The position numbers and the translations under genes are program-made. From positions 64,001-128,000 of the forward strand of contig JBMNIH010000009.1 in assembly GCA_050950825.1 (NCBI GenBank): a stretch of DNA of 64,000 bases. Direction: 5' to 3'. The stretch is from Clostridia bacterium. GTDB taxonomy: Bacteria; Bacillota; Clostridia; JAAYHZ01. The stretch's first letter is position 1. Each line of letters opens with the position of its first letter. The notes beneath the pieces are model-generated. The model worked only from the letters and a program-made list of their open reading frames with translations, ran no database searches and was not told the DNA's origin. Positions 1 through 17,631 of this stretch are shown here, in pieces.

Positions 1-59
1 AGTTAGTACTAATATATAAATAAGTAAAAAGCCCGAGTGGAATAGTAGGGAGACGGTTT

Positions 60-968
60 ATGAGTTTGATGAGGAATAAGGACGGTTTAACGGAAAAGGA
101 GTTTTTGGAAAGATACGATCCGAGCAAGTTTGAGCGGCCTTCCGTTACGGTGGATATGCTGATTTTCACCGTTTTGAGCAAGGACGCGGAGGATAATCGG
201 CGGCTTCCGGATAAAGACTTGTATGTATTAATGATTAAAAGAAGAGATCATCCCTGTATCGGCCGATGGGCTTTGCCCGGAGGATTTGTGAATATGAACG
301 AAAACTTGGATGAAGCGGCCCAAAGGGAATTAAAGGAAGAAACCGGCATTGAGAACCTGTACATGGAGCAGCTTTATACCTTCGGCGATGTAAACAGGGA
401 TCCGAGGACCCGGATTATCAGTACCTCCTATATGACCTTGGTGGATTCCGAAACGTTAGGGAGTATTCGTGCCGGGGACGATGCGGCGGACGTTGCCTTA
501 TTTCGAGTCAAAACGGCTTTGGAGGGTGAAAAAAGTACGCTATTGCCGGATTGCAGGATCAAGGAGCAAGTATATACGCTGATCCTTGACAACAAACAGA
601 CGACATTAAAAGCGACTTTAAAGAAAACAATAACGAGAAAGGGGAAAGTCACCCGAACCGGCTGGGAGATTGTTGAAAACGACGGAATTGCTTTTGACCA
701 TGCTAAAATTATTCTCTACGGATTGGAAAGACTGAGAAACAAAATTGAATACACGGATATTGCGTTCAATCTGATGCCGGATTTGTTTACCTTGTCCGAG
801 CTGCAGCAGGTATATGAAGTCATACTGGGCAAGGAGCTTTCGAAGGCGAACTTCCGCAGGAAGATATCGAATTTTGTACTGAAAACCGGAAAATCCACCG
901 AAGACAAAGCCCATCGACCGTCCATGCTGTATCGCTTTAATCCGGATTGGACCGAAAGAGGATTTTAA
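60..968 (+). CDS. nrtR: NrtR-family regulator (Nudix + winged HTH)
   Basis: PSVTVD, WALPGGF, intact Nudix box GGFVNMNENLDEAAQRELKEETGI, AFDH, C-terminal FTLSELQQVYE..ANFRRK wHTH; heads NAD salvage genes; RBS upstream. Confidence 0.9.
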   Translation: MSLMRNKDGLTEKEFLERYDPSKFERPSVTVDMLIFTVLSKDAEDNRRLPDKDLYVLMIKRRDHPCIGRWALPGGFVNMNENLDEAAQRELKEETGIENLYMEQLYTFGDVNRDPRTRIISTSYMTLVDSETLGSIRAGDDAADVALFRVKTALEGEKSTLLPDCRIKEQVYTLILDNKQTTLKATLKKTITRKGKVTRTGWEIVENDGIAFDHAKIILYGLERLRNKIEYTDIAFNLMPDLFTLSELQQVYEVILGKELSKANFRRKISNFVLKTGKSTEDKAHRPSMLYRFNPDWTERGF

Positions 969-985
969 ACAGAGGAGGGATTTTC

Positions 986-1633
986 ATGAAAGGATTTGGA
1001 GAAAGAATACTTGCCGAAATTCAGGAACGGTTGAAGAATATGCCTGTTCTTTCTTTTGATGATTTCGACAAAGAAGATACCGCCTTGGTCATCGTAGACA
1101 TGGTAAACGGATTTGCCAAAGAAGGCTTGTTAAGCAGTCCGAGGATTCGAAGCATTATCGATCCCATTGCAGGCCTTTTGAAAAAGTTTAAAGAAAAGGA
1201 TATGACGGTCATCGCTTTTGCCGATGCCCATAAGCCGGATTCCATCGAGCTTACGAATTTTCCGGAGCACTGTATCGCAGGAACTTATGAAAGCGAAGTG
1301 GTGGAAGAGCTTCAAAGCATAGGCGGATATACGCTGTTTCCCAAAAACTCCGTTAACGGATTTTTGGAGGATGCATTTTTGGAATGGTACGGGCGCCATG
1401 ACCGGATTAAAAACTGGATTGTAACCGGAGATTGTACGGATATTTGTATTCTGAATTTCGCTTTGACCTTAAAAAACGACCGAAATCGTAGAAACAAGGA
1501 ATCCCGAGTAATCGTTCCTTTATCCATGGTTGAGACCTATGACGGGGAAGGACATAATGCGGAATTTATGAATTTATCGGCCGCTGCCATTATGCTCAAC
1601 CAGGGAATCGAAATCGTTAAAAATATCGAATAA
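986..1633 (+). CDS. pncA: Isochorismatase-family cysteine hydrolase, probable nicotinamidase
   Basis: VDMVNGF, PEHC, KNS, GDCTDIC (D-K-C triad); GGAGG RBS before ATG 986; lies between nrtR and pncB. Confidence 0.8.
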   Translation: MKGFGERILAEIQERLKNMPVLSFDDFDKEDTALVIVDMVNGFAKEGLLSSPRIRSIIDPIAGLLKKFKEKDMTVIAFADAHKPDSIELTNFPEHCIAGTYESEVVEELQSIGGYTLFPKNSVNGFLEDAFLEWYGRHDRIKNWIVTGDCTDICILNFALTLKNDRNRRNKESRVIVPLSMVETYDGEGHNAEFMNLSAAAIMLNQGIEIVKNIE

Positions 1634-1680
1634 CATAAAAATTAAAATATATCACGGGAAACCGGGGAGGTTTTTTATCA

Positions 1681-3144
1681 ATGACAGAAACGAATCGTTG
1701 GACACAAAAGAGAAATTTGACCATGTTAACGGATTTTTACGAGTTAACCATGGCAAACGGATACCTGAAACACGGAATGCAGGATAAAATCGCATATTTC
1801 GATATGTTCTTCCGAAAAATACCGGATGACGGCGGATACGCCATCATGGCCGGTTTGGAACAAATGATTGAATATTTAAATGACTTGGTTTTTACCGAAC
1901 GTGACATTGCCTATTTAAAAAGCAAAAAGATTTTTTCTGATGAATTCTTAGACTACTTAAAAAATTTTAAATTTTCATGCGACGTATGGGCGGTTCCCGA
2001 AGGTACACCGATTTTTCCGGGTGAACCCATCGTTAAAGTTCGAGGACCCGTCATTGAAGCCCAGTTTGTGGAAACCATGATTTTACTTACCATCAACCAC
2101 CAGAGCTTGATTGCCACGAAAGCCAATCGAATCGTTTCGGCGGCACAAGGCAGAGCGGTGATGGAGTTCGGATCTCGAAGAGCCCAAGGGTACGACGGTG
2201 CCGTTATCGGCGCTCGAGCGGCATACATCGGAGGGTGTATAGGAACCGCATGCACCATGACCGATCGGGACTACAATATTCCCGCATTAGGTACCATGGC
2301 TCATTCTTGGATCCAGATGTTTCCCACCGAGTTGGAGGCCTTTAAAGCATATGCCAAAACGTATCCCCGGGGATGTACGCTGCTGGTAGATACCTACGAC
2401 GTTCTAAGAAGCGGTGTTCCCAATGCCATAAGAACCTTTAATGAAGTCCTTCTTCCTTTAGGGTACCGTCCGGCCGCCATACGGCTTGACAGCGGCGATA
2501 TTGCGTATCTGTCCAAAGCGGCTCGAAAAATGCTGGACGAAGCGGGATTTCCGGATTGCAAGATCGTAGCGTCAAATTCCTTGGATGAGTTCCGTATTCG
2601 TGACCTTTTACTGCAAAACGCACAAATCGATTTATTCGGAGTAGGAGAACGCTTAATCACCGCCGCATCGGAACCGGTCTTCGGAGGCGTTTACAAGCTG
2701 TCCGCGGTTGTGGAGAACGGAAAAATCATACCGAAGATTAAGATCAGTGAAAACCCCGGCAAGATCACCAATCCCGGAGCCAAGGAGGTATACCGCCTGT
2801 ATGACCGAGACAGCGGTATCGCTCTTGCCGACGTCATCACTTTAGAGGATGAAATCATCGACGATACGAAGCCTTATGAAATTTTCGATCCGGTTCATAC
2901 TTGGAAGCGGAAAACCCTTACGAATTTTAAAGCATCGAAACTGTTGGTTCCCGTGTTTAAAAAAGGCGTCTGTGTATACCAAAGCCCGAACATACAAGAA
3001 ATTCGAGAGTACTGCAAGCGGCAGGTCAACACGTTGTGGGAAGAAGTTCGAAGATTCGAAGATCCCCATGAGTATTATGTGGACTTGTCACAACCCTTGT
3101 GGGATATGAAAGACCAACTGATTCGCCGGCATTCAAGACCTTGA
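1681..3144 (+). CDS. pncB: Nicotinate phosphoribosyltransferase
   Basis: LTDFYELTM, EFGSRRAQG, GTMAHSW, LVDTYD, RLDSGD motifs. Confidence 0.95.
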   Translation: MTETNRWTQKRNLTMLTDFYELTMANGYLKHGMQDKIAYFDMFFRKIPDDGGYAIMAGLEQMIEYLNDLVFTERDIAYLKSKKIFSDEFLDYLKNFKFSCDVWAVPEGTPIFPGEPIVKVRGPVIEAQFVETMILLTINHQSLIATKANRIVSAAQGRAVMEFGSRRAQGYDGAVIGARAAYIGGCIGTACTMTDRDYNIPALGTMAHSWIQMFPTELEAFKAYAKTYPRGCTLLVDTYDVLRSGVPNAIRTFNEVLLPLGYRPAAIRLDSGDIAYLSKAARKMLDEAGFPDCKIVASNSLDEFRIRDLLLQNAQIDLFGVGERLITAASEPVFGGVYKLSAVVENGKIIPKIKISENPGKITNPGAKEVYRLYDRDSGIALADVITLEDEIIDDTKPYEIFDPVHTWKRKTLTNFKASKLLVPVFKKGVCVYQSPNIQEIREYCKRQVNTLWEEVRRFEDPHEYYVDLSQPLWDMKDQLIRRHSRP

Positions 3145-3154
3145 TAAAACCGTA

Positions 3155-3183
3155 TTGAACCTCCAAATCCTTTATGCTACACT
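3155..3183 (+). promoter_or_regulatory. Sigma-A-like promoter of the GH1-GH13-permease cassette
   Basis: TTGAAC-N17-TACACT with extended TG. Confidence 0.5.
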
Positions 3184-3224
3184 TTATTTATGGATATGGC
3201 GAAAAATTCCGGTTTGGGGGATGA

Positions 3225-4553
3225 ATGGATATGATCGGTTTTCGTATAAAGCCCGAGATGAAATTAGGGGTAGCCGTATCGGCTACCCAAATCGAGGGCG
3301 GTGATCGGAACAACAGCTGGTACGATTGGTATCGGAAAGGGAAAATCAAAGACAACTCGAGTCCGGAAAGGGCCAATCGGCATTACGAGCTTTTTCGTGA
3401 AGACACGGATTTATTAAAAGAAACTTTAATCCAAACCTACCGGTTCGGCATCGAATGGAGCCGAATCGAGCCGAAGCCGGGTGAATTCCGACAAGACGTT
3501 TTGAATCGATATCGTGAAGAGATTTCTTTATTAACGGAAGCGGGTATTCTTCCGCTTTTGACTTTGCATCACTTTACCAATCCTTTATGGTTCGAAGAAA
3601 TGGGCGGCTTTGAGAACCCGGATTCGGTACCGATTTTCTTACGGTTTACGGAAAAAGTCGTCTCTTCTTTCGGTGACTTGGTCAGCGAATACATAACCGT
3701 CAATGAACCGAACGTGTATAGCGTAGGCGGATTCTTTTTCGGCAATTGGCCCCCCGGAAAAAAGTCCTTTCGATCGGTTTTAAAAGTATACCGTCATTTG
3801 ACGGAATGCCATGTTAAAGCCTACGAGCTTATCCACAACATACGAAAAAACAAAGGTTATCACGATACCAAAGTCGGTTTTGCCCACCATATGCGTGTAT
3901 TTGAACCGAAAAATCCGAACAATCCTCTTCATCGGTTGTATGCAAATTGTAGCGAATATCTTTTTCAAGACGTCATTTGCAAAGCTTTTATGACCGGCGT
4001 GTGCGAGTTTCCCTTAAAAAAACCGAAGGATATCAAACCCGGTAAGTATTACGACTTTATCGGTTTGAATTACTACAGCCGAAGCACCGTGTCACGCTTC
4101 GGAGACGGTGTTAAAGGTAATGTACCCGTTAACGATTTGGGTTGGGAAATCTATCCCCAAGGTATCTTGGAATGTGCAAAAAAATTGTATAATCAATATT
4201 CGGCACCCGTTTACATAACCGAGAACGGAACCTGTGACAACGAGGACAAGTTCCGCTCTCGGTTTATTTATGAGCATTTAAAGGTTCTTTGCGAAAGCAA
4301 TCTTCCCGTACATCGATATTACCACTGGTGTTTTCTTGACAACTTCGAATGGCTGGAAGGTGAGAGTGCACGTTTCGGCATTGTTCATGTGGATTTTGAA
4401 ACCCAAAAGCGTACCGTGAAAAAAAGCGGATATTTTTACAGGGAAATTATCCGAAACGGCGGTGTCAGCGAGGAAATGGCACGAGAATGCTTGAACGAAG
4501 AATACAAAATCAACGATCCGAAAGAAAAGATAATAGGCGGAGCATGGTCATGA
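3225..4553 (+). CDS. Glycoside hydrolase family 1 (beta-glucosidase/beta-galactosidase)
   Basis: ATQIEG, YRFGIEWSRIEP, TLHHF, NEP acid/base, ITENG nucleophile, DNFEW. Confidence 0.92.
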   Translation: MDMIGFRIKPEMKLGVAVSATQIEGGDRNNSWYDWYRKGKIKDNSSPERANRHYELFREDTDLLKETLIQTYRFGIEWSRIEPKPGEFRQDVLNRYREEISLLTEAGILPLLTLHHFTNPLWFEEMGGFENPDSVPIFLRFTEKVVSSFGDLVSEYITVNEPNVYSVGGFFFGNWPPGKKSFRSVLKVYRHLTECHVKAYELIHNIRKNKGYHDTKVGFAHHMRVFEPKNPNNPLHRLYANCSEYLFQDVICKAFMTGVCEFPLKKPKDIKPGKYYDFIGLNYYSRSTVSRFGDGVKGNVPVNDLGWEIYPQGILECAKKLYNQYSAPVYITENGTCDNEDKFRSRFIYEHLKVLCESNLPVHRYYHWCFLDNFEWLEGESARFGIVHVDFETQKRTVKKSGYFYREIIRNGGVSEEMARECLNEEYKINDPKEKIIGGAWS

Positions 4554-6172
4554 CGAATTTGTGGTGGCAAGACGCCGTCGTTTATCAAATCTATCCGAAA
4601 AGCTTTAAGGACTCGAATAACGACGGCATCGGAGACATAAAAGGAATCATATCGAAGCCGGACTACTTGAAAGACCTGGGAGTCGATGTTTTATGGCTGT
4701 GCCCCGTATATCGATCTCCGGAAGTCGATAACGGATACGACATCAGCGATTACTTGGACATCAATCCGAAATTCGGTACCATGGAAGATATGGACCGTTT
4801 GATTCGACAAGCCGATCAACGAGGCATGAAAATTATCATGGATTTGGTGATCAACCACACTTCGGATAGGCACCCGTGGTTTTTAGAAAGCAAAGACAAA
4901 ACCGGTCCTTACCGTAATTATTACTATTGGAGGGAAGACGACGGCAAGGGCACCCCGAGCAATTGGACCGGATTTTTCGGCGGAAAAACCCGGAGCAAGG
5001 ATCCGGATACCGGCGATTGGTATTTGCACCTGTTTTCCAAAGAGCAACCGGACTTGAATTGGCACCATCCTGCCGTCATGGAAGAAATCAAGTCCGTAAT
5101 GAAATTTTGGCCGGACAAAGGTATTGCCGGTTTTCGATATGACGTGATCAATGTCATTTGGAAGGATTCCTTGGAAAACGGAAGATTTAAGCTTATCTTG
5201 AAAGGAAGTGAACACTATTTATCTCGGCCGGGAAGCCATGAGATTTTAAAAGCTCTTCGGAAAGACGTACTGAGCCGTTACGATTGCTTTACCGTGGGGG
5301 AGACGGTGTTCATAACCCCCGAAGAAGCAAGAAAATATACATTGCCAGAAAAAAAAGAACCGGATATGATTTTTTACTTCGAGCATATGGAAACGGACCA
5401 AATCCTCGTAAAATGGTTCAAAAGAAAATTCCGTCCCGAAAGATTATTTAAAACGCTGATCAAATGGCAAAAGGAACTGCCGTGGAACGCCAACTACTTG
5501 GAAAATCACGACCGGCCTCGGTCGGTTTCCCGTTTTGGCAATGTCGAAAAATATTGGAGGGAAAGCGCCAAAATGCCGGGCATGCTTCTTATGACTCTTC
5601 GAGGTACCCCCTTTTTATACCAAGGACAAGAATTGGGTATGACCGGGTTCGTTTTTCATTCCATGGAGGATATCAAAGACGTAGAATCCATTCAAATCGA
5701 AGCCTTGGCGAAAAAGCTGCTCATCCCCGAAAAGCTCCGTAAAAAAATCATTTTTTCCACAAGCCGAGACCATGCCCGTACGCCTTTTCAATGGTCCGAC
5801 CAAAAGCATGCCGGTTTTTCCGAAAGCACGCCGTGGATAAAGGTTAACCGTAATTACGTTCGTATCAACCAAGAAAATCAGAGCAAAGACCCGGACTCCG
5901 TTTTGGCTTTTTATAAACGTCTCATCGCTTTTCGTAAAAAATCCACCGCTTTAAAAGAAGGGTCTTTTACGCCCCTGTATTATGACAAAAAGACATTCAT
6001 ATATGAACGAAATCATGAACAAGAATCTTTGCTTGTATTGCTTAATTTCAGCGATAAACCGAGCAAAGTGAAATATGCGGGAGAATGTTTGCTGTCCAAT
6101 TACAACCGTAAAACCTTTGACGGGATGTTACATCCTTGGGAAGGAATTCTATTGTCAACTACTCCTCGGTAG
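4550..6172 (+). CDS. GH13 oligo-1,6-/alpha-glucosidase, probably degenerating in frame
   Basis: YQIYPKSFKDSN, NGYDISDY, QPDLNW, FRYDVIN, VGE, NHD; ATGA overlap with GH1 stop; several conserved L/W/Q replaced by P/R (see findings). Confidence 0.88.
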   Translation: MTNLWWQDAVVYQIYPKSFKDSNNDGIGDIKGIISKPDYLKDLGVDVLWLCPVYRSPEVDNGYDISDYLDINPKFGTMEDMDRLIRQADQRGMKIIMDLVINHTSDRHPWFLESKDKTGPYRNYYYWREDDGKGTPSNWTGFFGGKTRSKDPDTGDWYLHLFSKEQPDLNWHHPAVMEEIKSVMKFWPDKGIAGFRYDVINVIWKDSLENGRFKLILKGSEHYLSRPGSHEILKALRKDVLSRYDCFTVGETVFITPEEARKYTLPEKKEPDMIFYFEHMETDQILVKWFKRKFRPERLFKTLIKWQKELPWNANYLENHDRPRSVSRFGNVEKYWRESAKMPGMLLMTLRGTPFLYQGQELGMTGFVFHSMEDIKDVESIQIEALAKKLLIPEKLRKKIIFSTSRDHARTPFQWSDQKHAGFSESTPWIKVNRNYVRINQENQSKDPDSVLAFYKRLIAFRKKSTALKEGSFTPLYYDKKTFIYERNHEQESLLVLLNFSDKPSKVKYAGECLLSNYNRKTFDGMLHPWEGILLSTTPR

Positions 6173-6186
6173 TGGAAAGGATCTTT

Positions 6187-7572
6187 ATGGAGAATGAAAA
6201 TTTGACACGAAACAAATATTGCTTCGGATTAGGAACGGTAGGAAGGGATATGCTGTACACGTTGGTCAGCATGTATCTGTTGTTTTATCTTACGGACATA
6301 TTGAATCTGCCGGATTCTACCATGTGGTGGATGACTGCCGTTCTTACGGTCTTGAGAGTTTTTGATGCCGTAAACGATCCCTTTATGGGCGTTTTGGTGG
6401 ACAATACCAAGTCACGCTACGGAAAGTTCAAGCCTTGGATTGCCGTAGGTGCCGTTTTGGCCGGTGTATTTACGGTACTGATGTTTACCGATACGGGAAT
6501 GACCGGCTCTTCCTATATCGTCTTTTTCACCTTCGTTTACTTGACCTGGGATATCGTATACGGTGCCAACGATATCGCTTATTGGTCCATGCTGCCTTCT
6601 TTGACCATCGATTTGAGAGAGCGGGAAAAAATCGGGTCTTTCGCGAAAATATGCGCCAATGTGGGTATGTATATCGTCGTTGTGGCCATTATTCCGGTTA
6701 CGGAAATCTTAAGCCGTTTGACCGGCAGCGCCGTTCAAGGATGGTTTGTTTTCTCGTTGATCGTTGCCGGGTTGCTTTTGCTGTTTCAAAGCTTTACCGT
6801 GTTCGGCGTAAAAGAGATGAAAGGGACATTCAAAGAAGAAGAAAAGACGACTTTACGGGAAATGTTTTCGGTCATCTTTAAAAACGACCAATTGATGGTA
6901 ACCGCCGTAGCCATGGCCTTGTTCATGATCGGATACTGCACGACTACAAGCTTCGGGGTCTACTTTTTCAAGTATGGGTATAAGGATGAATCCATGTATT
7001 CCGTGTTTGCCGGGGTATTGGGCGTATCGCAAATCACCGCATTATCTTTATTCCCCGTCTTCGCCAAAAGGTATAACCGAAAACGGTTGTACACTTTTGC
7101 AACCGCTATGGTTGCGGCAGGCTATATCGTATTTTTCTTTGCTCCGATGAAAATGATCCCCATCGGAATTGCGGGTATTTTGGTGTTTATCGGGGAAGCC
7201 TTCATCTCCATTCTCATGCTGATGTTCTTAACGGATACCATTGAGTACGGCCAATGGAAGTTTCGGAAAAGAAACGAAAGCATCACTTTTTCCATCCAAC
7301 CGTTTATAAATAAAATAGGGGGTGCGATCGCCAACGGGATCGTCGGGATTACGGTGATCATTGCAGGAATCAATAGAGCAGAAACTCCCGAGGACGTAAC
7401 CTCGGAAGGGCTCTTAATCATGAAGCTTGCCATGTTGGTGCTTCCGCTTATTTTTATCGCCGTAGGATATTTCATTTACTTATCTAAATTCAAAATAGAT
7501 GACCGGCTTTTCGAGCAAATCGTAGCCGAATTGAAGCAAAGAGGAGATATTCGCAAGCCCTATTCGGAATAA
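6187..7572 (+). CDS. GPH-family (MelB-like) glycoside:cation symporter, MFS
   Basis: RVFDAVNDPFMG..VDNTKSRYGKFKPW, DTIEYGQWK, about 12 hydrophobic segments. Confidence 0.9.
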   Translation: MENENLTRNKYCFGLGTVGRDMLYTLVSMYLLFYLTDILNLPDSTMWWMTAVLTVLRVFDAVNDPFMGVLVDNTKSRYGKFKPWIAVGAVLAGVFTVLMFTDTGMTGSSYIVFFTFVYLTWDIVYGANDIAYWSMLPSLTIDLREREKIGSFAKICANVGMYIVVVAIIPVTEILSRLTGSAVQGWFVFSLIVAGLLLLFQSFTVFGVKEMKGTFKEEEKTTLREMFSVIFKNDQLMVTAVAMALFMIGYCTTTSFGVYFFKYGYKDESMYSVFAGVLGVSQITALSLFPVFAKRYNRKRLYTFATAMVAAGYIVFFFAPMKMIPIGIAGILVFIGEAFISILMLMFLTDTIEYGQWKFRKRNESITFSIQPFINKIGGAIANGIVGITVIIAGINRAETPEDVTSEGLLIMKLAMLVLPLIFIAVGYFIYLSKFKIDDRLFEQIVAELKQRGDIRKPYSE

Positions 7573-7598
7573 CTAAAAGACGACCTTTTGCTCGGGTG

Positions 7599-7650
7599 TT
7601 GTACTTTCTCGGGATATCGGATAAAATGATACGTGAACCGTTACGGTAAA
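7599..7650 (+). promoter_or_regulatory. Sigma-A-like promoter and possible operator upstream of the tandem GH-like genes
   Basis: TTGTAC-N17-TAAAAT followed by the short dyad ACCG-TTA-CGGT. Confidence 0.4.
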
Positions 7651-7675
7651 AAACCTATGCAGAGAGGAAATCATT

Positions 7676-9688
7676 ATGGGAGACAGACAAGCACCTTATC
7701 GTTACTTCAAGCCTCGCAAAATGGCAAGCTGGGTAACGGAGCTGGAAGACATCTTATGGCCTGCCAATAACATTGTAGAAAAAATCAAAAAAAGAGCGAA
7801 AAGCTTTGCGGATGCAGGCATCGATACGGCCATAAATTTCGGTTTCCATCTACGATTTGATTTTTCCGACTATTTCGAAATGCTCCACGGATATTTTAAA
7901 AACGTATGCGACGAATTGCATAAATACGGAATCAAGTTCATGGACCATTACAGCTGCAATCTGGTGGAAAGACCTCGAACCAAAGAGGATCTGTATTTTT
8001 TGCATAACGCCCACAAACACCACGTGCTTTTGCATAAGGACAGCAAAGCCGCCGAGTTTGCCCGGTACGAAGGCTATCGTTTTCAAGACCTGTGTGAAAA
8101 GCGCGTTGATGACGGCACGAGAGGCTACAGTTGGAATTACCAAGCGGAAATGTTTTGCCACAACAATCCCGATTTTTTGGATATGCATAAAAAGTATTTG
8201 CAGCGTTTATTGGAAGAAGTACCGATCGACGGATTGGAAATTGACGATATGTGCGATTACGGTTCCTTTTCCACCTGTGCTTGCGAATACTGTAAAGAAC
8301 GCTTCCGAAAAGAATTCGGGAGGGAATTGCCGCCATTCGAAGACAAGGATTTTTGGGGCAATACCGACGGGCATCCGACGACTTGGGGAAATTACGACAA
8401 CCCCGCCTTCCGCGATTGGGTTATGTTAAAAGCCAATTCCGCTCGCGATCATATTAAGATGGTAAAAAGTATAATCGGCGATCGCCCGCTTATGACCTGC
8501 TGTTCCGCAACGGGACCCATGGTTTTAAACGGATTGGGGTTGAATTTGGAGCGGTTCATGGACAACCTGGACCTTCTCATGCTTGAAAACTGCGGTATGG
8601 GCGTTAACACCGTGATTTGGGATCGGATTGAAGCGGAAGCCTTGATGCAGAAAAACATCGCCCTGAACATGGGCAATGCCCCCGCTTTGGCGTTAAGCTA
8701 TTCCGTATACGATACCGGTGCTTACATGGGTTGGGCTTTCGCAAGATTCTGGGGAGTATCCAACTGGGCAAGCACCTTGGAAGGACGCCTAAGCCACGAT
8801 CCGGGCGACTTTAAAGAAATTCACGAACTGATCGGGCCATGCAATAACTGGGAGGATCGATACAGCCCGTTGGATCCTTGTGAAGGCGAGGATGTTTACG
8901 AAGTGCGATTGGTAAACTCTCTGCTTAACCGTGAAAACGGGCATCGGGACGAACAAGGATACGACCATTGGACCAAATCCTCCTCTTGGTCGAAAGCTCT
9001 GCTCCGCTGCAATGTAGGATACCGCTTTGTACGGTTCACGGAGCTATCCGACAAAGACCGCTTATTAAGCGAAGATACGCCCTTGATTATCGATAACTGC
9101 GGTGTCGTATCGGATGAGCAGTTCGAAGCCATTAAAGCTTATCTTGAAAAAGGGGGAAAAGCCGTTATCGTTCCGCCTTTCGGTACAAAGGATGCCAAAG
9201 GCTTTAGAAGAGAAAAACCCTTGTTCGAGCTTTTGGAAAAAGGAAATTACCCCGGTTTGGTGATCTTGGAAAACGATTTGGCCGACGAAGCAATCGTTAA
9301 AAAGCTTATGGAAAGCAATGTAATCCGTCCTCGCATCCGCCAATTGGAGGGAGACGATACATGGGCGGTAAAGATAAGAAAGCATAAAGGTCGTTTGGTC
9401 ATGCACATTTTGAATCGTGCCATCGAAGGGATCCCTCATCCGGATTTGACTTCGCCCTACGGGGGAGGCCGAATTCTTCTGGATATTAAGAATACGAACA
9501 AACAAGAGGTTTTGTCGTATGCGGTCAAAACGGACCGAATGGAAGGACCGTGGGAAAATTTGTATTTTATGAGCCCCGAAACGGGATCCGTGAAAAGGGA
9601 AGTTGCGGCAGAGCAAATATCCGATGACGAAGTAAAAATAACTTTTAGTATAAAAGACATTAGGCTTTACGGAATCGTATCGCAATAA
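7676..9688 (+). CDS. Putative cytoplasmic glycoside-hydrolase-like protein (GH42/GHL6-like architecture), copy A
   Basis: FCHNNP, DGLEIDDM, CxCxxC-x3-F metal motif, WxxW, C-terminal LIIDNCGVVSD..YLEKGG resembling the beta-galactosidase trimerisation domain; no signal peptide; family not confidently assignable. Confidence 0.6.
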   Translation: MGDRQAPYRYFKPRKMASWVTELEDILWPANNIVEKIKKRAKSFADAGIDTAINFGFHLRFDFSDYFEMLHGYFKNVCDELHKYGIKFMDHYSCNLVERPRTKEDLYFLHNAHKHHVLLHKDSKAAEFARYEGYRFQDLCEKRVDDGTRGYSWNYQAEMFCHNNPDFLDMHKKYLQRLLEEVPIDGLEIDDMCDYGSFSTCACEYCKERFRKEFGRELPPFEDKDFWGNTDGHPTTWGNYDNPAFRDWVMLKANSARDHIKMVKSIIGDRPLMTCCSATGPMVLNGLGLNLERFMDNLDLLMLENCGMGVNTVIWDRIEAEALMQKNIALNMGNAPALALSYSVYDTGAYMGWAFARFWGVSNWASTLEGRLSHDPGDFKEIHELIGPCNNWEDRYSPLDPCEGEDVYEVRLVNSLLNRENGHRDEQGYDHWTKSSSWSKALLRCNVGYRFVRFTELSDKDRLLSEDTPLIIDNCGVVSDEQFEAIKAYLEKGGKAVIVPPFGTKDAKGFRREKPLFELLEKGNYPGLVILENDLADEAIVKKLMESNVIRPRIRQLEGDDTWAVKIRKHKGRLVMHILNRAIEGIPHPDLTSPYGGGRILLDIKNTNKQEVLSYAVKTDRMEGPWENLYFMSPETGSVKREVAAEQISDDEVKITFSIKDIRLYGIVSQ

Positions 9689-9704
9689 AGAAAAGAGGTT
9701 TATT

Positions 9705-11717
9705 ATGAGCGACAGACAAACACCCTATAAATATTTTAGACCTAGAAAAATGGCCAGCTGGGTAACCGAGCTTGACGACATTTTATGGCCGAGCAAAGCG
9801 GTAATCGAGAAAATCAAGAAGAGAGCCAAAGGATTTGCCGATGCGGGAATCGACACGGCGATTAACTACGGCTTTCATCTTCGTTTCGATTTTTCCGACT
9901 ATTTTGAAATGCTCCACGGCTATTTGAAAGATGTGTGCGACGAGCTTCACAAATACGGTATTAAATTTATGGATCACTACAGCTGCAACTTGGTGGAAAG
10001 ACCGCGAACAAAAGAAGATTTCTTTTTCCTTCGCAACGCCCACAGGCACCACGTTCTTTTGCATAAGGACAGCAAAGCCGCCGAGTTTGCCCAATACGAA
10101 GGCTATCGCTTCCAAGATATATGCGAAAAACGTATAGCCGACGGAACCCGAGGCTACAGCTGGAATTACCAGGCGGAAATGTTCTGTCACAACAACCCGA
10201 ACTTTTTGGATATGCATCGAAAATACTTGGAAAGATTGTTTAACGATGTACCCATAGACGGATTGGAAATTGACGATATGTGCGATTACGGCGCATTTTC
10301 CACTTGCTGCTGCGATTACTGCAAAGAGCGCTTCCGGAAAGAATTCGGAAGAGAACTGCCTCCCTTTGAAGATAAGGATTTTTGGGGCAATACGGACGCA
10401 CATCCGACGGCATGGGGGAATTATGAAAATCCCGCTTTCCGGGATTGGGTGATGTTAAAAGCGAACTCCGCTAAAGACCACATCAAAATGGTAAAAGAAA
10501 TATTGGGGGACCGCCCCTTAATGACGTGCTGCTCCGCAACCGGACCCATGGTTTTAAATGGCTTGGGTCTGAACCTGGAACGGTTTATGGATAATTTGGA
10601 TTTGCTTATGCTGGAAAACTGCGGCATGGGTGTCGATACGGTTTTATGGGACCGAAAAGAAGCGGAAGCGCTGCTTCAAAAAAACATTGCTCTGAACATG
10701 GGACGTGCACCGGCTATCGCTTTGAGCTACTTTGTATACGATCCCGGAGCCTATTTGGGATGGGCTTTGGCAAGGTTCTGGGGTGTGTCCAACTGGGCGA
10801 GCACCATGGCAGGAAGATTAAGCCACGACCCCGGAGACTTTAAGGAAACCCACGAGCTTTTAGCGCCTTGTAACAACTGGGAAGACCGATACAGTCGAAT
10901 CGATCCTTGCGAGGGAGAAGATATCTATGAGGTGCGTTTGGTCAACAACCTTTTATGCCGAGAAAACGGACATCGAGACGATAAGGGAAGAGACCATTGG
11001 ACGAAGGTCGCCGCATGGTCGAGGGCGTTGCTTCATAGCAACGTAGGATATCGTTTCTTACGCTATACCGAGCTTGCCGATGAAGAACGCCTTATCAGCG
11101 AAGACACGCCTTTGATTATCGATAATTGCGGAGTGGTATCCGACGCCCAGTTTAACGCGATAAAAGCATTTTTGGAAAAGGGCGGCAAGGTGATTCTTTC
11201 TCTTCCTTTCGGCATACGCGACGAAAAAGGATACCTTCGTGAAAAGCCTTTGTCCGAGGAGCTTTTAAACAAAGGATACAAAGGTCTTGTGTTGTTGGAA
11301 AACGTCGATTCGGCCGATGCATCCGTTGTTTCCCGATTGATCAGTGAAAATCATATCGTACCGAGAATTCGTCAAACGGAAGGGGATCCTACTTGGGCGG
11401 TCCGTATCCGAAAACATAAGGATAAACTCGTTATGCATGTATTGAATCGAGCATTGGAAGCAATCCCGCATCCGTCATTGACTTCTTCATTGGGACCTCA
11501 GAAGATATTGAAGGATTTTAAAGCGGTTCACAAAAACGATGTGATTACCTATGAAGTAAATATCGACGGAATTGTTGACGAATGGAACAATTTGACTTTC
11601 ATGACACCCGAAACCGGTTCAGTGAAACATGAAGTGAAAACGGAAATGATATCCGACCGGCTTGTACGGGTATCGATAAACGTGAAGGATCTTGTTTTGT
11701 ACGGTATAATTTCATAA
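9705..11717 (+). CDS. Putative glycoside-hydrolase-like protein, copy B (tandem paralogue of 7676-9688)
   Basis: Same length (670 aa) and same motifs; closely similar over the first ~450 aa; GAGG RBS. Confidence 0.6.
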   Translation: MSDRQTPYKYFRPRKMASWVTELDDILWPSKAVIEKIKKRAKGFADAGIDTAINYGFHLRFDFSDYFEMLHGYLKDVCDELHKYGIKFMDHYSCNLVERPRTKEDFFFLRNAHRHHVLLHKDSKAAEFAQYEGYRFQDICEKRIADGTRGYSWNYQAEMFCHNNPNFLDMHRKYLERLFNDVPIDGLEIDDMCDYGAFSTCCCDYCKERFRKEFGRELPPFEDKDFWGNTDAHPTAWGNYENPAFRDWVMLKANSAKDHIKMVKEILGDRPLMTCCSATGPMVLNGLGLNLERFMDNLDLLMLENCGMGVDTVLWDRKEAEALLQKNIALNMGRAPAIALSYFVYDPGAYLGWALARFWGVSNWASTMAGRLSHDPGDFKETHELLAPCNNWEDRYSRIDPCEGEDIYEVRLVNNLLCRENGHRDDKGRDHWTKVAAWSRALLHSNVGYRFLRYTELADEERLISEDTPLIIDNCGVVSDAQFNAIKAFLEKGGKVILSLPFGIRDEKGYLREKPLSEELLNKGYKGLVLLENVDSADASVVSRLISENHIVPRIRQTEGDPTWAVRIRKHKDKLVMHVLNRALEAIPHPSLTSSLGPQKILKDFKAVHKNDVITYEVNIDGIVDEWNNLTFMTPETGSVKHEVKTEMISDRLVRVSINVKDLVLYGIIS

Positions 11718-11729
11718 GCGGAGGTTTTC

Positions 11730-12206
11730 ATGAGTATTTTTAACGATGACGTAATGGAAGCGTTTGCAAGCGGCATGTTGAATGCGGTTTGCGAGTACGT
11801 CAGCAATGTAATCGGATGCGAGATGCTATTCAATCCGAAGGTCACGCTTGAGGAAGCCGTCCGGCGGGGGTTTGAAGAAAGCTCCGTGGATGATACTTAC
11901 GAGCGATACGGAATTGAAACGATTTTTCGGTTGTTGGAGCGAAGCGATTACAAGAGTTACGAAGAGTTGGATGTATTAAGAAAGAAATATACCGACAAAG
12001 TGATGAAGCTCTGTGTCAATTTCTACAAAAAAGCGCTAACCGAAACTTATGAAAAAAATCCCGGCATGTCGACGGAGGAGTTGTCCGATATATTGTCGGA
12101 TGATTTGACTTTATCCGGATCCGTTTATAACGAGAATTATATGATACGAAAAATCATGAAACTGTTAAGAGAATACGAAGAGCGTGTAAACGCCGTGGAA
12201 TGGTAA
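11730..12206 (+). CDS. Hypothetical acidic protein
   Basis: GGAGG RBS, tight operon spacing, no recognised motif. Confidence 0.7.
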   Translation: MSIFNDDVMEAFASGMLNAVCEYVSNVIGCEMLFNPKVTLEEAVRRGFEESSVDDTYERYGIETIFRLLERSDYKSYEELDVLRKKYTDKVMKLCVNFYKKALTETYEKNPGMSTEELSDILSDDLTLSGSVYNENYMIRKIMKLLREYEERVNAVEW

Positions 12207-12217
12207 GGAGTTGTGCC

Positions 12218-13189
12218 GTGAAAAAGTATTTTTTAGGTGTAGACGGTGGAGGCACGAAATTACTGTCCCTTTTATTCGACGAAGATTTGAATTTCATTTC
12301 ATCGGGAGTCGGAGGGCCGATAAATCCGAACTTTTCCACTTTGGATCAAGTCAAGGAGAGCATGATTCAAAGCATCACCGGGTGCCTGCCCGAAGGATTT
12401 AGAGAACCGATTCAATGTTGCCATATCACGATGCCGGGACCGGCGGAGCTCTATGTGGAGCTGCTGTCGGAACGCTGTCCGGTTATTGAGAGCAGGAGAT
12501 TAAGCGAAGGAGGTGCTTGCCTTTTGGCCGGTATCCAAAAGAAAACGGGTATCGTGGCATTGGCCGGCACGGGATCCGGCGCCTTTTATATCGTGGACAT
12601 CGAGCGGATGTATCATCTTGGCGGATGGGGATCGTTAGTAGGAGACGAGGGGAGCGGATACGATATCGGAGCGAAAGGACTTCGTGCCGCCATATACTCC
12701 TATGACGGCAGGGGTCCGAAAACCGTTTTGGAAGAGATGTTTAAAAGCTATTTCCAAGTGGAAGACTTTGTTGAAATTCGAAGCATTATATATAAAAATC
12801 CCAATTATCGCTCGACTTTATCCAAGCTGTGTTTACTTGTTTTGCAAGCGGCACGGCAAGGAGACCCTTGTGCGGTCAATATTATGAAAGAAGCGGGAAA
12901 AGACATGGCTTTGCAGGTGACGACCCTTATGAAACGAGAAGGAGTACCGGAAAAAGGAGTCGATATCGTGGTCTCCGGAAGCGTATGGAAGAAAAACTCG
13001 CATATGTTTGATTCGTTCAAGCAAGAAGTACAGAATCTTTATCCCCGCATTGTCGTATCGAAGCCTCTTTTTGAGCCTGCGGTAGGTTCGGTCGTTTTTG
13101 AAGCTTTTCGTCTGTACGACGAGATCGACAATGATAGGAGAAATCACCTGAAAGAGCAATTCCAAGGGTTTTTGTACGACCCGGTGTAA
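12218..13189 (+). CDS. BadF/BadG/BcrA/BcrD-family sugar kinase (N-acetylglucosamine kinase-like)
   Basis: LGVDGGGTK, AGTGS, GGWGSLVGDEGSGYDIG; GTG start after AAGGAG. Confidence 0.88.
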   Translation: MKKYFLGVDGGGTKLLSLLFDEDLNFISSGVGGPINPNFSTLDQVKESMIQSITGCLPEGFREPIQCCHITMPGPAELYVELLSERCPVIESRRLSEGGACLLAGIQKKTGIVALAGTGSGAFYIVDIERMYHLGGWGSLVGDEGSGYDIGAKGLRAAIYSYDGRGPKTVLEEMFKSYFQVEDFVEIRSIIYKNPNYRSTLSKLCLLVLQAARQGDPCAVNIMKEAGKDMALQVTTLMKREGVPEKGVDIVVSGSVWKKNSHMFDSFKQEVQNLYPRIVVSKPLFEPAVGSVVFEAFRLYDEIDNDRRNHLKEQFQGFLYDPV

Positions 13190-13216
13190 AAGAAGAAAGG
13201 AAGGTTTAAAAAGCCA

Positions 13217-13954
13217 ATGATTCAAACCTATTTTAGTGAAATACAGCGTATTTTGGATGAAATACTGAAAACCCAGAAGCCGGTCATGGAGAAAACGGCG
13301 GAGATTTTGGCGGATGCCATTGCGGACCGTCGCAACATTTTTGTTTTCGGCTGCAGCCACGCCGGTATATTGGCGCAAGAAATGTTTTACAGAACCGGCG
13401 GCTTGGCGGTTATCAATCCCATTCTTCCACCGGGGCTGACCTTGGAGGTTCGTCCGGTGACCATGACCACCGATATGGAACGGTTGGAAGGCTACGGGAA
13501 AACGATTTTAAAATCCTCCGGAATCAAAGAAGGAGATGTGTTGATTATCCATTCCGTATCCGGAAGGAATGCCGTACCGGTGGAAATGGCGATAGAAGCA
13601 AGAAAGACGGGTGTAACCGTGGTGGCCTTAACCAACGTGAAATATTCGAAATCGGTTACATCCAGACACAGCAGCGGAAAAAGGCTGTTTGAAGTATGCG
13701 ATTACCTTTTGGACAATTGCGGAAGCATCGGTGACACGGTTTGCAAGATTGAAGGGTTCGATCAAAAGGTAGCCGCTTCTTCTACGGTTTCGGGAGCCGC
13801 CATCTTGAATGCCATATTGGCCGAGACGGTGGACCGAGTCGTGAAAAAAGGCTTAGTTCCTCCCGTGTTTATCAGTGCGAACATGGAGGGAGGAGACGAG
13901 CACAACGCTCGCATTTTAAAAGAATACAAAGACAACATCAAATATATGGATTAA
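13217..13954 (+). CDS. SIS-domain sugar-phosphate protein (UPF0309, NagS-like)
   Basis: FVFGCSH, FYRTGGL, ERLEG, SVSGRN.VPVEMA, SRHSSG, PPVFISANMEGG. Confidence 0.85.
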   Translation: MIQTYFSEIQRILDEILKTQKPVMEKTAEILADAIADRRNIFVFGCSHAGILAQEMFYRTGGLAVINPILPPGLTLEVRPVTMTTDMERLEGYGKTILKSSGIKEGDVLIIHSVSGRNAVPVEMAIEARKTGVTVVALTNVKYSKSVTSRHSSGKRLFEVCDYLLDNCGSIGDTVCKIEGFDQKVAASSTVSGAAILNAILAETVDRVVKKGLVPPVFISANMEGGDEHNARILKEYKDNIKYMD

Positions 13955-13966
13955 GGTAATGATTTT

Positions 13967-14386
13967 ATGGCAGACACGGATCGGCGCTGCCCCTATTGCC
14001 ATGCGGCGGTAAAGCAAAGAGCTTTTCGATGCGCCGCATGCGGCAGCCTCATCGGAAGGAAAAATAAAAATATTCCGAGCATTGAACCGGAACCAAGGGA
14101 AGATGCGGAGCCTTCGAATTGCCTCGAGACCGAAGAGGTTCTTCCGAAAAGAAGAGCCCTTTCCACGACCGGTGCAGGCTTGTTTTTGTTCGGACTTATG
14201 GTGTTCATTCCCTTGGTCGGTCAATTGGCCGGACTTATCACCGGACTTGTGTTGTTCTTGCAGGGTAAAAGCAAAGACGGAAAATACAAGGGAAGAGTGT
14301 ATATATTTCAATACTTCTTGTTTTTCGTCTTTTGGTTTGCCGTACTCTATTTCCTAAACGAATACTTCGGGTTGGTAAAGTTTTAG
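13967..14386 (+). CDS. Zinc-ribbon membrane protein
   Basis: CPYC..CAACG at the N-terminus, hydrophobic C-terminal segments. Confidence 0.7.
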   Translation: MADTDRRCPYCHAAVKQRAFRCAACGSLIGRKNKNIPSIEPEPREDAEPSNCLETEEVLPKRRALSTTGAGLFLFGLMVFIPLVGQLAGLITGLVLFLQGKSKDGKYKGRVYIFQYFLFFVFWFAVLYFLNEYFGLVKF

Positions 14387-14388
14387 AT

Positions 14389-14979
14389 ATGACGGATAAG
14401 GAAACGTTAAGAAAAAGAATTCTTGCCGTAAGAAAAGGCTTGGATGAAGAAACAAAAAAGCGTTTGGGGCGGATTATATGCCAAAAGCTCTTGGATTCTT
14501 CTCTGTATAAGGAAGCAAAAACGGTTATGAGCTACATGGATTTTCGAAACGAAGCTCCGACGGAGGTTTTGAACCGTGCCTGTTTATCCGACGGTAAAAA
14601 TCTTTTGTTGCCTTACTGTATAGACGATAAAAATATGCATGCCGTAAAAGCGGAGCTTTTACCGGACGAATCCTTCACGGACCGCTTCGGCATTCGGGTT
14701 CCGAAAAACGCTCTCGAATATGTTTGGGATCCGAAAAGGATCGACCTTTTGGTTGTGCCCGGAGTGGTGTTCAACCGAAAGTGTTATCGTATCGGCTACG
14801 GGAAAGGCTTTTACGATCGGTTTTTGACACTAGTGAAGCCGGATTGCATCAAGGTGGGGTTTGCATACGAATTTCAGATCGTCGACGATCATTTTCAGCG
14901 GGATTACGATATCCCGACGGATATATTAATCAGTGAAAAGCGGGTCTATTACAATGAAAATAGTGGAGTTGGATTATAA
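14389..14979 (+). CDS. 5-formyltetrahydrofolate cyclo-ligase
   Basis: KETLRK, DLLVVPGVVF, RIGYGKGFYDRFL, DIPTD. Confidence 0.92.
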   Translation: MTDKETLRKRILAVRKGLDEETKKRLGRIICQKLLDSSLYKEAKTVMSYMDFRNEAPTEVLNRACLSDGKNLLLPYCIDDKNMHAVKAELLPDESFTDRFGIRVPKNALEYVWDPKRIDLLVVPGVVFNRKCYRIGYGKGFYDRFLTLVKPDCIKVGFAYEFQIVDDHFQRDYDIPTDILISEKRVYYNENSGVGL

Positions 14980-15937
14980 CAAGGAGAATACGGTAACAAG
15001 AGCGAACAAGCTGTTTTTTGTGTTCTGTACCCTTTTTTTGATTTCCCGATTGGCCTTTACCCTTTATATGAACTTTCAAATTGAGCTTTACGGTTTGGAT
15101 GTGGCCAACAACATGTTTGACGATTACACATATCCTCTCATTCTTTACAATGAGATTGTTTTGGTTTTGCTGCCCGCCTTAATCTACACGTTGATATACC
15201 GGCTGAATATACCCTACGGATTTCGCTTCAACACGTTAAAGTTCAAGAATCTGATTATCATCCTTCTACTGAGCGTTCCGTTGTATGTTTTCTTAAGCTC
15301 GGTAAACAGCATTTCCTATTACTTTCTGCAGCATGTAGGGGATATTCCTGCAAGGGACCTTCCTTTGCCGAAAAATGCAAGAGAATTCATCCTAAGCCTT
15401 TTCATTGTGGCATTTATACCCGCCGTTTGCGAGGAATATTTCCTTCGGGGAATCCTTCTTAACGCCTACAACCGAAGAGGCGCTTTTTCCGCCATTATAT
15501 CAGGCGGCATATTCTTTTCGATTTTTCATTTCGATTTGACCAATATTTTGGCACCCTTTTTCTTCGGCGTTATTATCGGCTATGTGGTTTTGCGAACCAA
15601 TTCCATCTATGCCGGTATTTTAGCCCATTTTCTCAACAACGCCATTGCCCATACCATGATGTTTGTTGCGAGCAAACCCGATGCTCCGGCCATTGTCCGT
15701 ATTTCCCCGGATGAATTTTTCGGGATTTTACTGCAATGTCTTGTCTCTTTGGCCGTCATTTTCCTGCTGCTCATGGCCATAAAAGCGTTGAACCCTCAAG
15801 TAAAATTAAAAAAGACCATTCGAAATCCCTTTTTAGGTTTCTTTGATATTATCACCCATTGGCCCGTTTTGCTTTCACTCGTGTTGTACGGCCTTCGCAC
15901 ATATTTTATCCTCATTCGCGTACAATTTATAAAATAA
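14954..15937 (+). CDS. CPBP (Abi/CAAX) intramembrane metalloprotease
   Basis: EEYFLRG, FSIFH, HFLNN motifs; polytopic; start uncertain. Confidence 0.88.
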   Translation: MKIVELDYNKENTVTRANKLFFVFCTLFLISRLAFTLYMNFQIELYGLDVANNMFDDYTYPLILYNEIVLVLLPALIYTLIYRLNIPYGFRFNTLKFKNLIIILLLSVPLYVFLSSVNSISYYFLQHVGDIPARDLPLPKNAREFILSLFIVAFIPAVCEEYFLRGILLNAYNRRGAFSAIISGGIFFSIFHFDLTNILAPFFFGVIIGYVVLRTNSIYAGILAHFLNNAIAHTMMFVASKPDAPAIVRISPDEFFGILLQCLVSLAVIFLLLMAIKALNPQVKLKKTIRNPFLGFFDIITHWPVLLSLVLYGLRTYFILIRVQFIK

Positions 15938-15960
15938 CGCCGTCTTTTTTCTTTAAATAG

Positions 15961-15988
15961 GTATAAACATTCATTTCCCACATATATT
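15961..15988 (+). promoter_or_regulatory. Sigma-E-like promoter of spoIVA
   Basis: GTATA-N15-CATATATT upstream of a known mother-cell gene. Confidence 0.55.
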
Positions 15989-16028
15989 TGTTATGGTACA
16001 AGTTTTAATGAATCAAGGGGGAATTTGA

Positions 16029-17504: not shown

Positions 17505-17547
17505 AACAAGCGGCGTAAAACCTTCTTTTTAATCGGATTCTAATTAT

Positions 17548-17597
17548 AAAACCTCCGAACCCATGTTATAATTAACGTAACGGTTCGGAGGTTTTTT
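17548..17597 (+). terminator. 14-bp perfect inverted repeat with T tail after spoIVA; loop holds an extended -10
   Basis: AAAACCTCCGAACC-N20-GGTTCGGAGGTTTT; loop contains TGTTATAAT. Confidence 0.7.
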
Positions 17598-17631
17598 CGG
17601 TTGAACGTAAAATGGAATTTTGGAGGCCGGA

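Follow-up and report, generated by a model that had tools for sequence, protein, structure and literature searches.

Very-short-patch (VSP) repair in Escherichia coli was reportedly proposed, by Bhagwat and McClelland and by Merkl et al. in 1992, to have an effect on oligonucleotide abundance. VSP-type biased correction and its proposed oligonucleotide imprint in E. coli are thus a kind of process that is already known. In Neisseria gonorrhoeae, the Vsr endonuclease V.NgoAXIV cuts a CTGG/CCGG T:G substrate, according to the available part of its description (PMC6116569). CCGG is over-represented in Helicobacter genomes, and in the available part of that study the authors offer no explanation (PMC4687349). 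Here we describe a gene for an alpha-glucosidase of glycoside hydrolase family 13 (GH13) that appears to bear the scars of a related process. The gene lies in a 64,000-nucleotide stretch of DNA, the whole of which was analysed and is called the window, covering G000:C9:64001-128000. Six residues that are almost always kept in its relatives have become Pro or Arg, each at a CCGG word, and the genome as a whole shows a directional loss of CTGG and CCAG to CCGG. It is rather probable, in our judgment, that this drive and relaxed selection on GH13 together yielded the six changes, with the drive most likely being an over-correction of T:G mismatches coupled to an HpaII-like methylase.

G000 is the source genome (3.55 Mb in 11 contigs, 97% complete) and belongs to an anaerobic-digester bacterium. 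G001 is its same-genus mate and G002 its same-family mate, and the family containing these three consists of uncultured spore-forming Clostridia. All other G numbers denote class relatives.

Six altered residues in a GH13 alpha-glucosidase

The protein matches the Pfam family Alpha-amylase (PF00128) over residues 13-471 with an E value of 1.1e-139 and 467 bits, compared to a cut-off of 22. Its best solved relatives, both matched at full length, are the oligo-1,6-glucosidase 9u7v (E 4.9e-158) and the Bacillus cereus enzyme 1uok (E 8.6e-148). The closest relatives in named genomes come from metagenome-assembled genomes (MAGs) of Clostridia and Oscillospiraceae, at 48-57% identity. The GH13 catalytic triad, which the original prediction had described as kept, occupies invariant columns in an alignment of 68 sequences (D198, E251, and D321).

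The original prediction also listed six CCGG words at which the protein departs from the oligo-1,6-glucosidase consensus, and all six coordinates and residues were confirmed (Table 1). The homologue set consisted of the 119 nearest clusters from a collection of 5.8 billion proteins. L37, W148, L188, L271, Q322, and L343 are near-invariant in the subfamily, each being kept in at least 118 of the 119 clusters, and the G000 protein reads P/R/P/P/R/P at these positions. The G001 orthologue (71% identity), 9u7v, and 1uok all read L/W/L/L/Q/L, which is also mostly the case for five class-level GH13 orthologues, with single exceptions at some sites. A check for orthologues with Pro or Arg at the six positions found none among the 119 clusters, and L>P, W>R, and Q>R changes account for 0 of the 641 departures that the 119 homologue proteins make from the 90% consensus.

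Each change had been explained by one T>C within CTGG. A single T>C step is directly visible at three sites (W148, L188, and L343) when the G001 codons are compared, so this part of the claim holds. At the other three sites, saturation of synonymous positions means that the single step is only inferred. If T>C or A>G had struck CTG, TGG, and CAG codons blind to the flank, the chance that all six free flanks would complete CCGG is 9e-5. The whole GH13 gene contains 17 CCGG, one CTGG, and one CCAG. The codon after P343 is also altered (A344G), which places a second substitution close to this CCGG (window 5576-5581).

Table 1. Positions in the window of the GH13 gene, its CCGG sites and surviving words, and the two neighboring genes used as controls. 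Hyphens within words mark codon boundaries.
Feature	Position	Strand	Remarks
GH13 alpha-glucosidase (oligo-1,6-glucosidase-like), 540 aa	4550..6172	+	Frame intact; catalytic D198/E251/D321 kept
CCGG site 1, CCG = P37 (relatives Leu, SKLDYL)	4658..4661	+	Leu in 119/119 clusters; G001 TTA
CCGG site 2, CGG = R148 (relatives Trp)	4990..4993	+	Trp in 119/119 clusters; G001 ACC TGG vs G000 ACC CGG, single T>C
CCGG site 3, CCG = P188 (relatives Leu, FWLDKG)	5111..5114	+	Leu in 119/119 clusters; G001 CTG GAC vs G000 CCG GAC, single T>C
CCGG site 4, CCG = P271 (relatives Leu)	5360..5363	+	Leu in 118/119 clusters; G001 TTG
CCGG site 5, CGG = R322 (relatives Gln, NHDQPR)	5512..5515	+	Gln in 118/119 clusters; G001 CAA; A>G on + is T>C on -
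CCGG site 6, CCG = P343 (relatives Leu, SAKML)	5576..5579	+	Leu in 118/119 clusters; G001 CTG GCA vs G000 CCG GGC
Sole surviving CTGG of the GH13 gene (CTG-G, Leu43), non-synonymous frame	4676..4679	+	Conserved as CTGG in G001
Sole surviving CCAG of the GH13 gene (CCA-G, Pro), synonymous frame	5345..5348	+	A8 run 5349-5356 follows
GH1 glycosidase, upstream, same gene string (control)	3225..4553	+	Pfam Glyco_hydro_1
MFS_2 (GPH) sugar permease, downstream (control)	6187..7572	+	Pfam MFS_2

Purifying selection on GH13 looks relaxed, in line with the proposal that this is an open frame under weakened constraint. The protein makes 26 departures at 239 columns that are conserved in at least 90% of sequences, compared to a median of 4 for the others and 15-20 for genus relatives. 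Eight further departures at conserved columns are unique to it, including C197Y, D368V, and W398K. Its G001 orthologue has eight CTGG words, all in non-silent frames, and three of these eight are CCGG in G000, compared to 8 of 232 elsewhere (p 0.004). GH13 also supplies 4 of the 20 L>P differences seen across 44,664 aligned residues in 151 gene pairs (Poisson p 1e-4). Within the species, the single-nucleotide polymorphisms (SNPs) in GH13 are four non-synonymous and none synonymous, compared to two and nine in genes outside the sugar string (p 0.011, with small numbers). Truncated or frameshifted proteins make up 6 of the 15 members listed for the GH13 90% cluster (P0516, P0517, and P0521-P0524), two pairs of which resemble halves of one split gene on the same contig. 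As judged from the protein, P0524, which comes from another assembly, matches P0001 exactly up to residue 271 and diverges thereafter, its frame being lost at the A8 run (5349-5356). In the window, as in contigs from two sequencing runs described below (X13 and X7), the frame stays intact.

The control genes do not show this pattern. At 268 conserved columns DnaE departs 9 times, in 6 cases together with G001 and in none by a TG>CG change, and UvrB has no departures at 266 conserved columns. These two results agree with the earlier observation that dnaE and uvrB are free of such lesions. The MFS permease has 18 departures at 259 columns, most of them common to its nearest relatives (14-19), and no L>P or W>R lesions. 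In GH1, 68 conserved columns hold 5 departures, of which G001 has 2 in identical form, and CCGG-type lesions are absent.

Several of our own observations speak against relaxation. The identity of GH13 to its G001 orthologue equals the median of the 151 gene pairs, the frame and the catalytic triad are intact, and the GH1 and MFS neighbors are not degraded. The SNP argument consists of four SNPs only, taken from contigs, and the truncated alleles could be assembly errors at homopolymers. Given the median identity, the intact frame and triad, and the sound neighbors, the relaxation must be recent or partial; it looks as if constraint weakened recently and the most mutable sites were scarred first.

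Another possible explanation is that the enzyme is functional and that its changes are tolerated or even adaptive, through proline stabilization in a warm digester or a new specificity, with the drive having supplied only the raw material. Proline-driven thermostabilization has been described for the oligo-1,6-glucosidase family, and the intact frame, the intact triad, and the median identity are in favor of this explanation. The sequence is also present in RNA libraries, though contigs are no proof of transcription. In the predicted fold (mean pLDDT 87.8, the predicted local distance difference test score), P37 is the first residue of helix 37-43 and P271 lies in the loop preceding strand 273-275, both of which are Pro-tolerant places. 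P188 lies near the C-terminal end of helix 174-190. The model locates residues only and is silent on stability because it follows the alignment. By the same model P343 sits in the middle of helix 336-349, and the Trp replaced at position 148 is invariant. None of the 119 related clusters has accepted Pro or Arg at any of the six positions, all four within-species SNPs change the protein, truncated alleles exist, and the eight further unique departures fall at conserved columns. We therefore consider a functional enzyme unlikely.

Genome-wide loss of CTGG and CCAG

With observed-to-expected ratios (O/E) of 0.63 and 0.67, CTGG and CCAG belong to the five tetranucleotides that are most strongly depleted in G000, and in 255 kb of G001 they are the most depleted of all (0.62). 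A frame test was used to resolve this depletion, in which the O/E of a tetranucleotide is calculated for each reading frame conditioned on amino-acid pairs. Where T>C is silent (xCT-GG, the hyphen marking the codon boundary), the O/E is 0.07 in G000 and 0.12 in G001. Where A>G is silent (CCA-G), the values are 0.34 and 0.24. Where T>C would turn Leu into Pro (CTG-G), they are 0.84 and 0.91. The target word CCGG is enriched in all three frames, at 1.19-1.43 in G000 and 1.51-1.86 in G001. The loss is specific to transitions, as seen in the TCN, ACN, and GCN codons that precede GG in G001, where third-base T is at 0.01-0.04 and third-base A at 0.14-0.38.

The same depletion is found in 195 kb of intergenic-like DNA of G000. 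There, T/(T+C) is 0.096 in C[Y]GG, compared to 0.32-0.51 when the 3' base differs and 0.41-0.46 when the 5' base differs. Because intergenic-like DNA shows the same C[Y]GG depletion, the signature is not translational. G002 also carries it (1 T vs 64 C), and pooled class relatives show a weaker shift (0.256 vs 0.474). Between G001 and G000, 8 of the 16 L>P differences outside GH13 fall at CCGG, compared to an expected fraction of 0.196 (p 0.006). There is a T>C (A>G) drive at CTGG and CCAG in G000, G001, and G002, and it is genome-wide, acts at the DNA level, and needs both flanks. The sequence-directed mutator postulated in the original prediction thus exists. L>P or W>R at CCGG compared to G001 was also seen in further genes, among them those for a URO-D-like protein, a BNR protein, an SNF2 helicase, a PfkB kinase, and SpoIIE.

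The depletion might instead reflect selection on the words themselves. In this explanation, CTGG and CCAG would be avoided to escape restriction, or CCGG would be favored as a functional methylation site, and the GH13 changes would be by-products. The rank of CTGG and CCAG among the most depleted words in G000 and G001 and the enrichment of CCGG in all three frames are compatible with it, as is the over-representation of CCGG in Helicobacter that the available part of the study leaves unexplained (PMC4687349). The frame test points the other way. Negative selection on a word would delete it wherever a synonymous escape exists, whereas a directional T>C acts only where its product survives selection. 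CTG-G is barely depleted even though five other Leu codons would remove the word, and the extreme loss is seen only where the transition is silent; therefore, mutation pressure rather than word avoidance is indicated. Only the T, and the A in CCA-G, is lost and not the transversion neighbors. Pro and Arg at invariant residues would also be a price hardly worth paying for a word. Selection on words is thus quite unlikely, and restriction avoidance in particular was ruled out by the frame test.

G000 also shows a broader tendency to create CpG, which the original prediction had not noted, and this trend alone could be proposed to explain the six changes, with the CCGG context being a coincidence aided by codon structure. 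CpG density is 61.8/kb in G000 compared to 38.8/kb in G001. Every type of NTGN>NCGN change shows a strong asymmetry between the two genomes, and Q>R replacements number 101 vs 21. The codon itself also fixes the 5' C for L>P and the 3' G for W>R and Q>R. The free flank completes CCGG in six of six cases, with the probability given above. No other TG>CG change is present at conserved GH13 columns, where the CCGG-specific component is the only TG>CG type. In the synonymous frame the O/E is 0.07 for CTGG compared to 0.25-0.26 for ATGG and CTGA, and for CTGA the silent-frame value is 0.26 in G000 but 0.84 in G001. Only C[Y]GG is depleted in intergenic DNA, and G001 and G002 carry the CCGG-specific signature without CpG enrichment. 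The broad TG/CA>CG shift of G000 is separate from the CCGG-specific one, and the CCGG component is much stronger. It is very unlikely that the broad trend alone produced the six changes.

A systematic miscalling at a methylated motif, for example N6-methyladenine in CCAG read as G by nanopore sequencing, could have written CCGG into the assembly. An 11-contig assembly is compatible with long reads, and a transition at a short motif on either strand has the look of methylation-linked base-calling errors. The stretch is present in 20 of 24 listed public runs from 17 studies, including bioreactor, digester, and sludge metagenomes and Illumina metatranscriptomes. Four of these runs, given X numbers as labels, were compared as assembled contigs over window 1-20000; the level of transcription cannot be inferred from such contigs. 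In run X13 a single contig spans 1-8056, and its 9 differences all lie away from the six GH13 sites. Run X7 has contigs at 1-4758 and 4747-8056, whose GH13 letters agree with the window at the six sites. The X15 Illumina RNA contig (5415-6364) has no differences and spans sites 5 and 6. No alternative letter was found at the six sites in any of the four runs compared. Among the listed cluster members from other assemblies, Pro or Arg is kept at every covered site, the exceptions being the frameshifted ends of P0523 and P0524. The signature also varies by reading frame (0.07 vs 0.84), which a frame-blind error would not do, and DnaE and UvrB are clean. A base-calling artefact is therefore extremely improbable, as the original prediction had argued. 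The six GH13 substitutions are real, and all examined assemblies and cluster members that cover the sites carry them.

RNA editing back to L/W/Q was rejected, since Q322R would need a sense-strand G>A and one C>U activity would not be sufficient for all six. The X15 RNA contig has no differences at its two covered sites, and low-level editing could escape because contigs drop rare variants. Codon reassignment is ruled out by reasoning alone, as CGG would need to mean both Trp and Gln.

Some observations on other words and genes were made alongside these results. In G000, CCTGG/CCAGG is depleted beyond the CTGG effect, with 1063 observed compared to 2004 expected from tetramers (0.53), and GGCC (0.65), CGCG (0.57), and CTAG (0.44) are also low. 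The class relatives G017, G024, G030, and G021 show the reverse pattern, with CCGG at 0.09-1.0/kb and xCT-GG preferred over xCC-GG, which is expected under CCGG restriction. The window also contains spoIVA, spoIIM, dnaE, uvrB, mutS2, and recA, the last of which is cut by the window end. Downstream of the permease are two tandem paralogues (7676-9688 and 9705-11717) of 670 residues each, 77% identical and without a Pfam family. The X19 RNA contig joins 8026 to 10056 across these paralogues, as a repeat would predict.

A C5 methylase and the search for its partner

The original prediction called for a C5 methylase of CCGG together with a Vsr or TDG/MIG enzyme, and the first half of this pair has a candidate. 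G000 has exactly one PF00145 gene, at C10:25415-26419 (match 25427-26398, 329.5 bits), and its product has all the canonical motifs of this family (FAGIGG, PCQ, ENV, QNRER, and GNSV). It is 80% identical to the G001 copy and 59% identical to the G002 copy, with a conserved target-recognition region. The 120 nearest homologues of the G002 copy include one, at 69% identity, that NCBI calls 'Modification methylase HpaII'. Fifteen of the 120 are fusion proteins of 526-562 residues in which an N-terminal Vsr is joined to the methylase. One such fusion is recorded from a Methanimicrococcus MAG. On the grounds of this similarity and the NCBI name of a relative, the methylase is predicted to modify the inner C of CCGG. 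No restriction gene was found beside the G000 methylase. Its neighbors are DUF1848, GNAT, a BNR protein, and a Crp-type regulator; they do not recur next to the G001 and G002 copies and therefore give no operon clue.

The signature is present in all four relatives that have a full-length homologue of this methylase (G001, G002, G013, and G014), with values of 0.01-0.09 compared to 0.29-0.59. The methylase of G013 is directly preceded by a Vsr gene, and Vsr is present in G002, G010, G013, G014, G019, and G027. Of the components expected for VSP repair, G000 has the C5 methylase and a depletion of the T-variant of the putative target but not of the target itself, and Vsr was not found there. DUF559, which has a Vsr-like fold, was not found in G000, G001, or G002.

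Three family-4-like uracil-DNA glycosylase (UDG) paralogues are present in G000. The third member of this superfamily (G000:C2:277428-278042; L129, L154) falls below the NCBIfam family-4 cut-off and has the motif DNPGE, the usual family-4 motif being GEGPG. Its orthologues occur only in G001, G026, and G009 at 44-58% identity. It was rejected as a correlate, since signature strengths differ among these genomes (0.01 in G001, 0.12 in G026, and 0.38 in G009). No TDG/MIG partner could be singled out in G000, and this second half of the proposed pair is not supported.

The explanation we favor has two parts. A tetranucleotide-specific transition drive would convert CTGG and CCAG into CCGG across the family (G000, G001, and G002), and relaxed purifying selection on GH13 would allow hits in Leu, Trp, and Gln codons to escape removal. 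The drive would arise from over-correction of T:G mismatches to C:G at CCGG sites. VSP logic, which normally protects 5-methylcytosine (5mC) in C(5mC)GG, would here be linked to the orphan HpaII-like C5 methyltransferase that the family conserves. If replication mistakenly places G opposite a legitimate T in CTGG, the repair would remove this T and so fix CCGG. CCGG methylation and T:G correction are presumed in this account, and the GH13 enzyme would probably have lost its function.

The silent-site signature is strongest in G000 and G001, the two genomes in which Vsr was not found. Left without repair, a C(5mC)GG methylase should generate CTGG, and the six GH13 changes are younger than the divergence of G000 from G001, so some correcting activity must exist in G000. 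We tentatively suggest that the genus of G000 and G001 runs CCGG-specific T:G to C:G correction without a Vsr-family endonuclease, an unrecognised enzyme acting as the partner of the orphan methylase, although on present evidence this is doubtful. Candidates for the partner are one of the three family-4-like UDG paralogues, a helix-hairpin-helix glycosylase, or something unannotated.

A number of results weigh against the favored explanation as it concerns the drive and its source. Vsr (PF03852) was not found in G000 or G001 by Pfam searches, nor in G000 by a custom profile run with filters off over 66,428 frames, where the best E value was 2.6 and positive controls gave ~1e-61. Among solved structures, the recognition region of the methylase is closest to a Dcm-like enzyme. 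Several class relatives, such as G012 and G018, carry the signature without a detected methylase homologue. At three of the six GH13 sites the G001 codon is TTA, TTG, or CAA, so that a one-step origin from CTG or CAG has to be assumed. Finally, the general NTG>NCG trend of G000 is substantial: in a crude count between the two genomes, 17.5% of CTGA in G001 is CCGA in G000, compared to 2.6% in reverse, and by the same count CTGG>CCGG reaches only 4.6%.

A separate observation concerns the class relatives. G012, G018, G008, and G025 show strong depletion of CTGG at silent sites with no methylase homologue detected at an E value of 1e-20 or better. In these four genomes the signature may be the work of another enzyme, or the assembly may be incomplete.

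Comparison with known systems

If the tentative suggestion of a Vsr-free correction is right, its drive would be powerful enough to rewrite invariant codons once selection on them slackens. The two genomes in which the signature is strongest, and in which no Vsr was found, are a concrete place to seek a new enzyme that corrects T:G. In annotating the G000 lineage, Pro or Arg at CCGG should be read as scars of the drive, and genes that carry them should be regarded as possibly inactive. By setting silent against non-silent positions of one tetranucleotide, the frame test needs only sequence to tell mutation pressure apart from word selection, and it can be applied to other genomes. In keyword searches of the open-access literature, no paper was found that links the depletion of CTGG to a CCGG methylase, though one could still be in print.

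The GH13 protein resembles the oligo-1,6-glucosidases 9u7v and 1uok in its full-length match and its catalytic triad. It differs from them in having Pro or Arg at six residues kept in at least 118 of 119 relatives, along with the eight unique departures. The methylase has the motifs of HpaII-type C5 methyltransferases, and its G002 copy has HpaII-named and Vsr-fusion relatives. Unlike HpaII-type enzymes, it has no adjoining restriction partner, and the likeness runs through the names of relatives and not through the characterised M.HpaII sequence. As in Helicobacter, to judge from the available part of that study (PMC4687349), CCGG is not avoided in G000 despite a putative CCGG methylase.

The mismatch context of V.NgoAXIV is exactly the one required by the drive in G000, and this enzyme demonstrates that CCGG-directed T:G incision exists in nature. 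In the available part of its description, the study of V.NgoAXIV is biochemical and reports a mutator phenotype, with no genome-wide compositional consequence or protein damage described (PMC6116569). Its enzyme family, Vsr, was also not found in G000.

A close parallel is the E. coli Dcm/Vsr system. In both cases the T-variant of a C5 methylase target, putative in G000, is depleted genome-wide, and the presumed logic is shared: every T:G ends as C:G, so that a legitimate T is mutated. The E. coli target is CCWGG, whereas in G000 the target is the 4-base CCGG and the signature, more than 10-fold at silent sites, is anything but subtle. The methylase of G000 also stands alone without a conserved neighbor, and no Vsr gene was found in G000 or G001. 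New here are the CCGG target with its very strong, frame-resolved imprint, the occurrence of that imprint at its strongest in two genomes where no Vsr was found, and the visible damage to a protein whose gene is relaxed. Given the silent bias against CTGG of more than 10-fold, and the radical residue changes once selection relaxes, this would be an unusually clean natural case of a repair system acting as a sequence-specific mutator.

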